Origin: a virus
DNA length: 64,000 bases
IMG/VR virus record: IMGVR_UViG_3300050343_000215
Span: 32,001-96,000 of that record
Strand: one strand, 5' to 3'
Part shown: positions 14,966-33,440 of the stretch, in pieces
Layout: each line of letters begins with the position of its first letter
How positions within the stretch are numbered: the stretch's first letter is position 1
Made by a program: the position numbers and the translations under genes
Notes under the pieces: generated by a model
What the model was told of the DNA's origin: nothing
What the model saw: only the letters and a program-made list of their open reading frames with translations
Databases searched by the model: none

Positions 14966-15003
14966 ATAAAAAAAGGAGGGTTACCCCCTCCCGATTATTT
15001 ATA
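14966..15003 (-). terminator. Intrinsic terminator preceded by a TATAAATA late promoter
   Basis: GGAGGG/CCCTCC stem plus T-run; TATAAATA at 15003-14996. Confidence 0.7.
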
Positions 15004-15014
15004 CTACTGTAATA

Positions 15015-15182
15015 TCACTTACTGTAGGTGCGTCCACGATAACAAAATGTACCATGGGTTTGCTTACTCTCTACACAACGTGTATCATACTCAACACCAC
15101 GATATGAGGTGTGAAGAACTTGTGCGTCGTGAAGTGCAGATACTTTATTGATCTGCTTCTTGATCATGTTTAGCGTGTTCAT
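15015..15182 (-). CDS. DUF4278-family peptide
   Basis: Manual: MNTLNMIKKQ..TSYRGVEYD..TFCYRGRTYSK (YRG motif twice); AGGAG SD. Confidence 0.75.
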   Translation of the reverse strand: MNTLNMIKKQINKVSALHDAQVLHTSYRGVEYDTRCVESKQTHGTFCYRGRTYSK

Positions 15183-15217
15183 TTAATTTACTCCTGAAAG
15201 TTAGGGTTTTTAATTCC

Positions 15218-15401
15218 CCGTTCCTTCAGTCGTGTGCGTCCCATGGATAACATTCAGGGGTTGATTCCTTCATGACCTCAATCAATTCCACCTTATATTC
15301 GGGAGGAATATTCTCATTTGTTCTCATCCGAATCATAATTGAATCGGCTTGAGCACAGCTGAGAGTTGAATAGAATAGTAATTCTAACATGGGATGAACG
15401 G
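15218..15401 (-). ncRNA. Glutamine-II (Downstream-peptide)-like aptamer 2 with ORF-sized loop
   Basis: CCGTTC/GAACGG outer stem; TCCCATG/CATGGGA inner stem; 3' GACGCACACGACTGAAGGAACGG. Confidence 0.6.
15226..15390 (-). CDS. 54-aa ORF nested in aptamer 2
   Basis: Manual: MLELLFYSTLSCAQADSIMIRMRTNENIPPEYKVELIEVMKESTPECYPWDAHD. Confidence 0.7.
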   Translation of the reverse strand: MLELLFYSTLSCAQADSIMIRMRTNENIPPEYKVELIEVMKESTPECYPWDAHD

Positions 15402-15403
15402 CT

Positions 15404-15447
15404 CCGTTCCGCGACTTACTTGCGTCCTCCTTACGGGGGATGAACGA
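15404..15447 (-). ncRNA. Glutamine-II-like aptamer 1
   Basis: CGTTCA-TCCCCC-GTAA-GGAGGA-CGCAAGTAAGTCGC-GGAACG. Confidence 0.55.
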
Positions 15448-15454
15448 TGGTAAC

Positions 15455-15500
15455 AGTGTACATTACTATTTAGTATATGTCAACTGTATAATGCAATACA
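15455..15500 (-). promoter_or_regulatory. Sigma70 promoter with embedded late promoter and upstream NtcA-like box
   Basis: TTGACA-17-TACACT; CTAAATA in the spacer; TGTA-N8-TACA at 15485-15500. Confidence 0.75.
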
Positions 15501-15502
15501 CT

Positions 15503-15700
15503 TTAATATTTTCTTAAAGTTTTAAGATGTTCTACGATGTTATCACGTACCCACATAAGTTCATGATAGCATTGTTGGTTATGAGCACACTGACGCAGTG
15601 CAGGATCTGGTTTCAATACACTCTCAATAAACAAATCTAGACCACGATTCCACTTTACTTCTTGAGATTCACTGCCATCAATAACATACTGATCTTTCAT
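15503..15700 (-). CDS. Hypothetical protein
   Basis: 65-aa ORF in a tight operon. Confidence 0.7.
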   Translation of the reverse strand: MKDQYVIDGSESQEVKWNRGLDLFIESVLKPDPALRQCAHNQQCYHELMWVRDNIVEHLKTLRKY

Positions 15701-15936
15701 TAAATCATTCCTCGTTCTTTCATGTGGTGAAGGGTTTCTTTGAGGTTACCGAGATGCTTAGCACCAATGGCTACCTGTGGGTATGTAGCACCAGATCCAA
15801 ATTCTGCTTCAAATGCTCTTTGAGTAAAATGTTCGTTGAGGTTATACTCAAGAAATTCTCCACCCATAGACCTAAGTAGTGAAGCAATACGCTCACATTC
15901 TTGACTACCGTTTGTGTAGATTACTGCTGTGGTCAT
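15700..15936 (-). CDS. Glutaredoxin-like protein (SQEC, single Cys)
   Basis: TYPQV..GAKHLG thioredoxin-fold motifs. Confidence 0.7.
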   Translation of the reverse strand: MTTAVIYTNGSQECERIASLLRSMGGEFLEYNLNEHFTQRAFEAEFGSGATYPQVAIGAKHLGNLKETLHHMKERGMI

Positions 15937-30944: not shown

Positions 30945-33440
30945 TTATGCCTCTAATCTAATTGCGGTAAGGGTTACGTTAATGGTTGCTGCAGCACCAG
31001 AACGATTGGTAACTGCAAGATATACTGTATCTGTCGCGCTAGGCGAATCATTGTTATAACCAAAAGCAGCAGGTGCCATCCTAACTACTCCTGATCCTCT
31101 GGATTCAGCGATGACTCCTGACCCAGTGCCAGGATCATTTCCTTCACTTCGGGTAGCATCTGCTGTTCTAGCAGCAGCATCAGTATAGACTCGCACCCAT
31201 GCATCAGCATCAGTTTCAATTTTAAGCAAAGTATATGCTTTGTATGCTGTTATATTTAGGTCTCCTGTAATATTATCTGCCAGTGAGGATGTAGTTCCGG
31301 TGAAACTTTGACGTGCCTGAAGACCCACAGATCCACCAGCAGCAACAGTGACAACTCCACCAGCATCAATAGAAAGACCTGCGCCAATTTTAATACCACC
31401 CAAGGTGGCGGCGGCAGCGATTGGTAATACATATCCTCCAGCGGCAGCTGCGATATTACCATTAGAATCTACAGTAATAGTAGTACCGTCAGGGATAACC
31501 CCACCCAGTGCTGATGTTGTAGCAGCGGGTAATGAATATGCAGCTGGAACAGATGGTTTATTAAGAATCTGTGCTAACCCAGTAGTAGCATTCCAATCCG
31601 ATTGAACTGGTGCTGTACTAGAAATGGTTGCTGCTTTATTAACAGAGTCCCATGAGATATTAGTACCACCAGCACCAGAAAACTCAATCTGATCTGTTGT
31701 TCCTACAGAGGGATCAAGGTTCAGGAAGACATTATTTGATGTGGTGTTAGTACCGTAAAGATCATACAAGATTGCAGATCCACCACCGCCGCCACCAGAG
31801 GAGAGAACCGTGATGGTTCCAACCATATTAGAGTGAGCACTACACTGGTAGTAATATGTCCCAGCAACTGTAGGTGTCCAAGAAACTGTAGCAGTTCCTT
31901 CTCCAGAAGCAGCAGGATTGTTTACGCTAGAACCACCATTCGCAACCCTAATATACATTGGGTGCCCTACATATGTGGCAGTATTATCAAAGGTAATTGT
32001 ATCACCAGCATAAAGAGTGATTGAAGGATCAGCATCACCACTGAAAGTGTTACTGCGATCTGATCCAGTGAACAGATAATCTCCAGATTGAGAAGCAGTA
32101 GTAATATTATATGTGGTAGGAGTAGTTCCTACTTGAGCATTGATAACTTTACTACTGGTATCATATGTGAAAGAGATACCCAACTGAGTACCATTAAGAA
32201 GTGCCTGTGCAGCAGCATCCTTGGCTTCACTATCACTATAGGATGAACCTCCTCCAGATCCAGCACCTTGCCTCAGAGTAATTGTATTCTCGTCTGTTCT
32301 CTCAACAGTAAGACCATCAGCACCAGCGAATACAATATCATCAGTAGATGGTGTGCTATAAACATTTCCACTAGCAGTATAATGTGTACCAGTTAATCTA
32401 AGTTTTACTGTATTGCCTAATCCTGTCTCAGAAGAAATGGCATACTTTTTAGAACTGAATGTTAACGTATCATTTGAGGCAAAAATTCGTGTTTCGCCAT
32501 AGTAATTTTCAGCAAATTGAACTGTATCTGTGATAGTATCAGATCCAGTTAGAGTTAATGTCCTATTACCATCAAAACTTAAAGTATATGTGGTGTTAGT
32601 ATCTTGCTGAATGTCAGTATATCTTGCAACTCTATACCATGAGTTACCAGCAGCATAATAGAGTTGGTTATCATCATCATTAAAAGCGATTGCTCCTTCG
32701 TATGTCGTGGCACTTGGGAAACTTCCCTGCTGATCATACCAAAATGGAATCTTACTCGCTGTTTGTGTAGCAGTAGTAATACTATTAACACCTGTTAGAT
32801 TGCTATTAGTATCTACAACTAGTGTAGAATCTGAAAGAACTGTTCCATTTACCCCATCAAACAATGCGATAGCATTATCTGTTGTTGTACTAGGAGCACC
32901 TACAGTTCCTGATAATGAAGTAGAGAATGTTACTGTATTATTATTTCTAGTAATGGTAATATTACTACCACCTTTCAAGATCAATGAATCAGAACTACTA
33001 TCAGATCCTGTCAGCGTAGCACTGGCACCATCTACCTCATTAGCAAAAATTAAATCATATGTAGTATTAGTATCTGTTCCAGTGAATGTAATAACACCAG
33101 CATTTTCTGCCAGGGTTACACCTCCAGCACCTGTGAAGGTAACTTGATCCTGCTGTCCTGTAGCATCTCCAGTACCGGTGAGTCTCAACTTAACATCATT
33201 TACAGCAGCATTAACTGATGAAAATGCATATGCACTATTAGTATCAGTGAATGTAATCCACTTTAATCCAGAACCAGTGGATGCTAAAATTTGATTATTA
33301 AGTCCAAGACCATCCGACAAAGTAATTGTCGCACCATTCAAATCAAGGGTTTCCCCCGTTGAAATTTTCGCTCCTTCAGCAAAAATAACTTTATCGTTAT
33401 TCGCTAAATTTACTAGTTCGTCAACTAATAGTCGTGACAT
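30945..33440 (-). CDS. Tail-fibre-like protein with cupredoxin-like domain
   Basis: DTNTTY repeats; GHP..YYYQCSAHSNMVG; two Y.LP.A....LGG repeats. Confidence 0.7.
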   Translation of the reverse strand: MSRLLVDELVNLANNDKVIFAEGAKISTGETLDLNGATITLSDGLGLNNQILASTGSGLKWITFTDTNSAYAFSSVNAAVNDVKLRLTGTGDATGQQDQVTFTGAGGVTLAENAGVITFTGTDTNTTYDLIFANEVDGASATLTGSDSSSDSLILKGGSNITITRNNNTVTFSTSLSGTVGAPSTTTDNAIALFDGVNGTVLSDSTLVVDTNSNLTGVNSITTATQTASKIPFWYDQQGSFPSATTYEGAIAFNDDDNQLYYAAGNSWYRVARYTDIQQDTNTTYTLSFDGNRTLTLTGSDTITDTVQFAENYYGETRIFASNDTLTFSSKKYAISSETGLGNTVKLRLTGTHYTASGNVYSTPSTDDIVFAGADGLTVERTDENTITLRQGAGSGGGSSYSDSEAKDAAAQALLNGTQLGISFTYDTSSKVINAQVGTTPTTYNITTASQSGDYLFTGSDRSNTFSGDADPSITLYAGDTITFDNTATYVGHPMYIRVANGGSSVNNPAASGEGTATVSWTPTVAGTYYYQCSAHSNMVGTITVLSSGGGGGGSAILYDLYGTNTTSNNVFLNLDPSVGTTDQIEFSGAGGTNISWDSVNKAATISSTAPVQSDWNATTGLAQILNKPSVPAAYSLPAATTSALGGVIPDGTTITVDSNGNIAAAAGGYVLPIAAAATLGGIKIGAGLSIDAGGVVTVAAGGSVGLQARQSFTGTTSSLADNITGDLNITAYKAYTLLKIETDADAWVRVYTDAAARTADATRSEGNDPGTGSGVIAESRGSGVVRMAPAAFGYNNDSPSATDTVYLAVTNRSGAAATINVTLTAIRLEA

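Follow-up and report, generated by a model that had tools for sequence, protein, structure and literature searches.

A probable glnA-type riboswitch with a nested, permuted second core and a complete 54-codon gene in one of its loops, conserved in cyanomyoviruses

The window analysed here is the whole stretch of 64,000 nucleotides covering positions 32,001 to 96,000 of the IMG/VR record IMGVR_UViG_3300050343_000215. The source is a 178-kb record of a T4-like cyanomyovirus, about 95% complete, which also contains a PhotoRC-II RNA and five tRNAs. All coordinates are window positions and sequences are quoted in the RNA sense. The whole module lies on the minus strand at 15448-15180, and reading of the sequence recovered there every motif named in a preliminary description of this DNA. 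The genes, the transcription signals and the motifs of the two sequence units are the following:

15485-15500, minus: NtcA-type box TGTA-N8-TACA, TGTATTGCATTATACA, 1 nt upstream of the -35 element
15455-15483, minus: sigma-70-type promoter TTGACA-17-TACACT, 10/12 matches
15446-15441 and 15410-15404, minus: unit 1, CGTTCA and GGAACGG
GACGCAAGUA, minus: between the hairpin 15440-15425 and AGUCG 15416-15412
15401-15396, 15394-15388 and 15245-15239, minus: unit 2, (C)CGTTC, TCCCATG and CATGGGA
15400-15395, minus: second CGUUCA, after the linker AGC
15226-15390, minus: nested gene, 54 aa (phrog_504; T4-GC_430; syn9 gp197 family)
15015-15182, minus: downstream gene, 55 aa, DUF4278-like (phrog_545; T4-GC_937; syn9 gp198 family)
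14970-14992, minus: intrinsic terminator, at the end of a bicistronic transcript of about 480 nt

Copies of the module are conserved in 372-417 phage records, nearly all of them Synechococcus or Prochlorococcus myoviruses, whose annotations list the two ORFs as hypothetical proteins (T4-GC_430 and T4-GC_937, or syn9 gp197 and gp198). Pattern scans of IMG/VR gave 123 and then 212 unique environmental modules, of which 199 of the 212 were ORF-bearing. Eight modules without the ORF showed a plain tetraloop hairpin in its place, for example CCC-UUCG-GGG, and the ORF therefore occupies a P2-type loop, the position that had been proposed for it. The scan of cellular genomes returned 17 matches, which equals the chance expectation; about six of these contained the module, on phage-like or marine MAG contigs. 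Contigs that carry the module are assigned to MAGs or assemblies of Synechococcus, Verrucomicrobiales, Nonlabens and 'Euryarchaeota' (L150, L153, L156, L160, L161 and L165). Contigs of this kind filed as cellular are most likely mis-binned or contaminant cyanophage DNA. A published survey lists only two glutamine aptamers in cyanophage genomes (PMC5473149), and glutamine riboswitches have been annotated in a few cyanophages (PMC9964418). No published description of genes nested in an aptamer, or of nested or permuted cores, was found in the searchable literature.

The promoter precedes the leader and the terminator is located downstream of the second ORF, from which a bicistronic RNA of about 480 nt is predicted; its start should be a few nucleotides upstream of the first CGUUCA. 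Most modules have a TTGAC-type -35 element at -36 to -38 relative to CGUUCA. The pattern GTA-N8-TAC was found within 90 nt upstream in 74 of the 123 modules, compared with 3.1 expected from shuffles, and its positions cluster at -52 to -61 from the first CGUUCA, adjoining the -35 element; judged by these counts, the NtcA-type box is real and conserved in position. The spacer of the promoter contains CTAAATA (15466-15472, minus), which resembles the late-promoter motif of T4-type cyanophages, and TAAATA or TATATA occurs at the same place in many related modules. A late-like motif in the spacer suggests a dual early/late promoter. Directly upstream (15503-15936, minus) there are a 65-aa ORF (phrog_495) and a glutaredoxin-like gene, the latter with a Pfam score of 22.3 bits against a cutoff of 22.9. 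Elsewhere among the phages the module follows nrdB, speD or an HNH endonuclease gene, and because the upstream neighbours differ between phages it behaves as a movable cassette.

The ATG of the nested gene (15390-15388) lies inside the 5' arm of a stem designated P2b below, and its last codons and stop, TGG GAC GCA CAC GAC TGA (15243-15226), form the conserved 3' aptamer block, as the preliminary description had pointed out. In this region the RNA reads CAUGGGA-CGC-ACA-CGACU-GAAG-GAACGG (15245-15218), with the stop UGA at 15228-15226. Of 112 modules, 106 have the AUG at +10 relative to the second CGUUCA, and 108 share a single position of the stop. The 111 distinct nested proteins are 49-66 aa long, and the indels between them comprise whole codons solely. 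The median dN/dS over the interior codons was 0.27, with 99.9% of 2078 pairs below 1, and the variability at the three codon positions was 13.9, 6.1 and 19.0. The nested ORF is a real gene under purifying selection, which had been named beforehand as a check on it.

Cysteines C12 and C47 are invariant in the nested protein, and the RNA block determines its C-terminal DA(N/H)D. The AlphaFold2 model is a two-helix hairpin (pLDDT 81.7). The protein belongs to no Pfam or NCBIfam family, a Foldseek search against the PDB gave no match at E <= 0.001, and the homologues are all annotated 'hypothetical'. Many database entries for this protein (P0003-P0045) are 77-82 aa long, with the called start upstream and the reading frame running through the aptamer; these longer versions are probably a start-site artefact. 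The GGAG at 15405-15402, composed of the end of strand 2 (see below) and an AG linker, is the likely SD sequence of the nested gene. It was present in 109 of 112 ORF-bearing modules versus 2 of 11 ORF-less ones (Fisher 9e-10, relatedness ignored), the linker after the middle GGAACGG being AG in the former and AU in the latter.

The loop of the P2a hairpin of the outer core contains an ORF of its own, of about 66 aa (gp196-like), in 32-34 other modules including that of syn9. Its AUG is also at +10, and its stop (UGA, UAA or UAG), part of the 3' arm, covaries with the 5' arm. This gp196-like gene was observed at 290-523 of the syn9 locus L006, in L012, L016, L019 and L045 and in about 30 environmental loci; the encoded protein has a hydrophobic N-terminus and two Cys.

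The 55-aa ORF downstream is preceded by an AGGAG SD sequence (15195-15191). Gene and SD sequence are thus as first described, the assignment to DUF4278 less so, as the protein gave 22.2 bits (E 1.9e-4, residues 26-54) against Pfam DUF4278 (PF14105), the cutoff being 25.3. Against phrog_545 the E value was 5e-35, two YRG-type repeats are visible and no PDB sequence relative was found; on these matches the protein is best called DUF4278-like.

A further element of the leader concerns this SD sequence:

15191-15200, minus: CUUUCAG, partner of CUGAAGG, overlapping the AGGAG SD sequence (covariation; MFE structure)

It forms part of CUUUCAGGAG at 15200-15191, which follows a small hairpin 3' of the last GGAACGG. 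Its partner CUGAAG, in the 15218-15227 region, doubles as the anti-SD strand. The SD-masking helix CUGAAG/CUUCAG, which comprises 6 bp only and covers 2 nt of AGGAG, was paired in 99.6% of the cells of an 89-sequence alignment; its variable pair is G-C in 40, A-U in 26 and G-U in 23 sequences, and 33 of 33 CUAAAG variants are partnered by CUUUAG. The ORF-less forms retain the same mask. In some phages the last GGAACGG of the riboswitch is followed, still ahead of the SD sequence, by a third element, ACGGAUCC-hairpin-GAGAAGGUU (loci L011, L036, L067, L076, L089, L093, L112, L124 and L166-L174); it is absent from the window. The GUUC of this element may pair with the GAAC of the last GGAACGG and offer an extra platform for alternative pairing.

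The leader contains four P1-type strands, which are numbered in the order of the transcript, together with the helices and linkers of two cores:

15442-15446, minus: strand 1, CGUUC, 5' strand of outer P1 (invariant in alignment A1)
15425-15440, minus: P2a hairpin of the outer core (RF01739 alignment)
15417-15424, minus: CGC linker of the outer core, then AAGUA, 5' half of loop E (invariant; role of the CGC per PMC6698751)
15412-15416, minus: AGUCG, 5' strand of P3, pairing with 15228-15232
15402-15410, minus: strand 2, GGAACGG, of the inner core, and AG linker (covaries with strand 3)
15396-15400, minus: strand 3, CGUUC, of the inner core, forming a hairpin with strand 2 (covariation; RNAfold MFE and centroid)
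15388-15394, minus: UCCCAUG, 5' arm of P2b with the nested start codon, pairing with 15239-15245
15239-15245, minus: CAUGGGA, 3' arm of P2b, within the last codons of the nested gene (covariation, RNAfold)
15236-15238, minus: CGC linker of the inner core (invariant; role inferred from PMC6698751)
15228-15232, minus: CGACU, 3' strand of P3 (covariation)
15218-15227, minus: GAAG, 3' half of loop E, and strand 4, GAACGG (RF01739 composites; covariation with strand 1)

The four P1-type strands are nearly invariant, hence variants were scanned at the outermost pair. Their distribution in the 212 environmental modules was as follows:

All four strands canonical, uninformative: 126
CAACG strand 2 with CGUUG strand 3: 72
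CAACG/CGUUG plus CGUUU strand 1 with AAACG strand 4: 9
CGUUU strand 1 with AAACG strand 4 alone: 1
Not parsed: 4

It was found that strand 1 is CGUUU only where strand 4 is AAACG (C:G to U:A, 10 modules), and that strand 2 is CAACG only together with CGUUG as strand 3 (81 modules). All 82 informative modules fit solely the pairing of strand 1 with strand 4 and of strand 2 with strand 3; none fits solely 1:2 and 3:4, and none fails both, these counts representing few independent events of P1 covariation because the 2:3 positions are 13 nt apart and the 1:4 U:A variant looks like one clade. The variant state of 2:3 was found with several families of the nested protein, and the scans for variants at A37 of either GAACG strand gave no matches. 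The outer P1 accordingly joins 15446-15442 to 15223-15219, and the inner one joins GAACG 15409-15405 to CGUUC 15400-15396. Strand 4 is the 3' strand of outer P1, and its final G would form a pair with the C that ends the CGC linker. Evolution has not kept the outer stem that the preliminary description drew for a second aptamer between CCGTTC and the last GAACGG.

The remaining helices were counted on the 89-sequence alignment with 500 shuffles and slid controls; none of the 500 shuffles reached the observed covariation measures, and the slid controls were far lower. P2a pairs in 98% of the cells, and 2 of the 3 pairs counted show compensatory changes. P3 is paired in 100% of the cells in A1 and in 210 of the 212 modules, with the compensatory variants AAUCG/CGAUU and AUUCG/CGAAU. 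The cross-pairing of AGTC with GACT, proposed earlier as a possibility, is hence real and corresponds to P3, AGTCG at 15416-15412 being complementary to CGACT at 15232-15228. P2b changes on both sides in 7 of 7 pairs, with 38 haplotypes; pairing reaches about 99% of the cells for its four junction-proximal pairs and about 50-80% for the outer three, and one phage has a wholly different stem, GAUUAUG/CAUAAUC. The inner stem TCCCATG/CATGGGA of the preliminary description is thereby borne out as a covarying helix, its arms being 142 nt apart and not 143, while the outer stem gave way to 1:4 and 2:3.

The 270-nt leader folded in RNAfold with -77.1 kcal/mol (z = -3.2), and the 2:3 hairpin, P2b and the SD-masking hairpin were all contained in both the MFE and the centroid structure. 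Closure of P2b buries the nested ATG, as had been claimed. The helices and their wiring are observed features of this RNA, and so are the conserved module and the fact that the nested gene is coding. In the loci L141 and L101 the loop of the 2:3 hairpin, from the middle GGAACGG to the second CGUUCA, is expanded by 98 and 63 nt, respectively, so that judging from these two sequences inserts are tolerated in a third loop as well.

At the gathering thresholds no riboswitch family of Rfam matched anywhere in the window. With permissive filters, unit 1 gave 25.4 bits against RF01739 (cutoff 35), the sole match to this family in the 178-kb genome, and 19.3 bits against RF01704 (cutoff 33), to which the relatives reach 27.3 bits at most. 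Two ORF-less natural homologues passed the RF01739 cutoff, with 43.6 and 42.9 bits, solely as a composite alignment in which P1 consists of the first CGUUC and the last GAACG and is followed by P2a, CGCAAGUA, P3 as AGU...ACU and GAAGGAACG, the whole second unit being treated as the 'loop' of P3. Single units in the ORF-less forms gave 25-31 bits, and the composite was about 13-18 bits higher. The window's own score stays below the RF01739 cutoff; its P3 insert of 186 nt exceeds the span of the model. The covariance model R1, which was built from 7 natural ORF-less forms in place of a deletion of the ORF in silico, likewise found in the window the two halves of the module only (25.5 and 15.4 bits) and was unable to bridge the ORF. 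The published glnA match of S-CREM1 is 99 nt long with 44 bits, which fits the same composite. By these scores the best family match is glutamine-I (glnA, RF01739) and not glutamine-II (RF01704), the identity first suggested; the resemblance of the units to glutamine aptamers was upheld.

At the level of individual nucleotides, the outer linker and AAGUA match the RF01739 consensus CGGAAGUA, and the loop-E strands AAGUA and GAAG flanking P3 are present and invariant in the 89-sequence alignment. Unit 1 is devoid of GAAG and unit 2 of AAGUA; since AAGUA occurs only in the former and GAAG only in the latter, loop E forms solely under the nested wiring. Both cores contain CGC and GGAACGG at invariant positions, which would give a C:G cap pair as in glutamine-II. 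In the solved glutamine-I and -II structures the ligand is bound in the groove of P1/PK, where it contacts C1:G40, the pair G2:C39 with the linker G, and the last base of the linker, which itself pairs with the base 3' of GAACG; the outermost P1 pair is tolerant to change in the solved glutamine-II structure (PMC6698751). All the glutamine-contacting nucleotides of the solved structures are present and invariant in both cores.

Taken as a whole, the module is probably a glnA-type riboswitch with a permuted second core nested in its P3 and built around the 54-codon gene. The host-type promoter and the adjacent NtcA-like box would drive the bicistronic RNA, the first 233 nt of which would fold as the glutamine-I riboswitch. 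Its outer core would comprise P1 of the first CGUUC and the last GAACG, P2a, the CGC linker, the AAGUA/GAAG loop E and P3, AGUCG/CGACU. Having no capping loop, this P3 would open into a second, circularly permuted glutamine-binding core, composed of the GAACG/CGUUC hairpin, the second CGC and a P2 stem which encloses the complete 54-codon gene.

For the working of this RNA we infer glutamine binding, a direction of control and a competition between folding and translation. In the absence of glutamine CUGAAG(G) would pair with CUUUCAG and mask part of the SD sequence of the DUF4278-like (IF17-like) gene. CUGAAG combines the two final bases of P3 with the loop-E GAAG, and the liganded outer core should for this reason free the SD sequence: in the presence of glutamine the anti-SD bases would be held in P3, loop E and P1, and translation would be ON. 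In cyanobacteria the riboswitch turns on translation of gifB/DUF4278, for which an anti-RBS model was proposed (PMC6212724), and by analogy the SD-masking helix is consistent with a glutamine ON switch as on gifB.

Because the inner core buries both the GGAG and the AUG of the nested gene, folding of the sensor should preclude translation of that gene and vice versa. Ribosomes on the nested gene would have to melt P2b and P3 and would stop at the UGA lying within the anti-SD strand. As the stem closes round the gene, sensing of nitrogen probably competes with nested-gene translation for one and the same RNA. A glutamine-controlled switch between two proteins is plausible on this layout; the regulatory logic is ambiguous because termination at the nested UGA could alone unmask the downstream SD sequence. 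It is tempting to speculate further that the RNA is a two-site, pseudo-symmetric glutamine sensor, which controls the two proteins reciprocally, silencing the nested gene and turning the IF17-like peptide on when folded with its ligand, glutamine, and which is unfolded and reset by translation of the nested gene, although we hold this extension to be possible and no better than tentative. If true, part of the switching would be done by ribosomes translating a gene that lies within the aptamer of the riboswitch itself.

The nearest competitor of the nested two-core reading takes the outer glnA-type aptamer as the only sensor, the inner core as a duplicated remnant or a scaffold for P3, and the nested gene as an uncoupled passenger, settled in a tolerant loop much like the homing-endonuclease genes of group I introns. 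Forms without the ORF occur with the SD mask unchanged, the loop of the ORF is filled by different protein families, inserts are also found in the loop of unit 1 or that of 2:3, and the full loop E is found in the outer core only, all of which would agree with a single sensor. However, more than 200 variants show no change in the inner CGUUC, CGC and GGAACGG, which exceeds the needs of a scaffold, and the AUG fixed inside a stem, the stop inside the anti-SD strand and the GGAG linker tied to the presence of the ORF are not the marks of a passenger, so that this explanation appears rather unlikely. Two independent tandem aptamers (1:2 and 3:4) with the ORF in the loop of the second, the model of the preliminary description, would account for each unit alone being a sub-threshold match to RF01739 or RF01704 and for the pairing of 1:2 by RNAfold in one short form, and tandem glnA RNAs are reported (PMC2864571). 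Against this, in the 82 informative modules the outermost pair of each tandem P1 helix is lost while 1:4 and 2:3 persist, loop E is possible only across both units and the composite exceeds the single units; the tandem wiring was rejected on the covariation (82 modules versus 0), which makes this model very improbable, and the tandem pairing may at most be a transient co-transcriptional fold. Least probable by a small step is a protein-binding, processing or stability element that merely resembles an aptamer and senses no glutamine, with which the sub-cutoff Rfam scores of the window itself would be compatible but not the invariant glutamine contacts, the homologues above the Rfam cutoff, or an NtcA box and a DUF4278 gene context that match host gifB control.

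Compared with the known glutamine-I riboswitches (RF01739), such as the Synechocystis gifB (IF17) leader (PMC6212724) and the three-way-junction aptamer of the solved structure (PMC6698751), the nested two-core RNA has in common the P1 CGUUC/GAACG, the P2 hairpin, a putative linker in the P1 groove, the AAGUA/GAAG loop E and P3, together with a downstream DUF4278-type gene and an anti-SD arrangement that would fit an ON switch. It differs in that P3 bears a second, circularly permuted core in place of a loop, the P2 loops hold whole protein genes, and the putative pair capping P1 is C:G, as in glutamine-II, and not G:C. Moreover, the element is found in a phage and the window sequence is below the Rfam cutoff. 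With glutamine-II (RF01704, the Downstream-peptide motif of marine picocyanobacteria) it shares the core CGUUCA-hairpin-CGCA...GGAACGG, the putative C:G pair capping P1 and the short DUF4278-type peptide genes downstream, whereas the pseudoknot with a coaxial P2 flanking GGAACGG is absent and the RF01704 scores are 19-27 bits against a cutoff of 33. The helix which does flank GGAACGG here starts directly at GAAG-GAACG and overlaps the SD sequence, and because it overlaps both the core and the SD sequence it should exclude the folded core.

Tandem riboswitches (glycine; the tandem glnA RNAs, PMC2864571) also have two ligand-binding cores on one leader, an arrangement that by analogy could give a sharper response. 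The cores described here are nested, share P3 and are wired 1:4 and 2:3 instead of standing side by side. Group I introns with homing-endonuclease ORFs in their peripheral loops (PMC3984707) likewise show that a structured RNA tolerates a whole ORF in a hairpin loop, and in both systems folding and translation must be coordinated since the structured RNA holds the ORF in a loop. Unlike the introns, the module is a putative metabolite sensor and not a ribozyme, and the start and stop of its ORF are built into the core.

Riboswitch aptamers are regarded as compact non-coding domains, and their use by phages is thought to be rare. Here a glutamine-type aptamer with whole genes in its loops and two nested cores occurs in hundreds of cyanomyoviruses, in a form that standard covariance-model scans miss. 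The module provides a testable case of ligand sensing versus translation on the same RNA, and of a possible two-site permuted aptamer architecture. By analogy, the NtcA box, the riboswitch and the IF17-like peptide mirror host gifB control. The phage may thus offer a testable copy of the host nitrogen-status circuit, with NtcA box, glutamine riboswitch and IF17-like peptide, and such copying would bear on how marine phages steer the nitrogen metabolism of their hosts.
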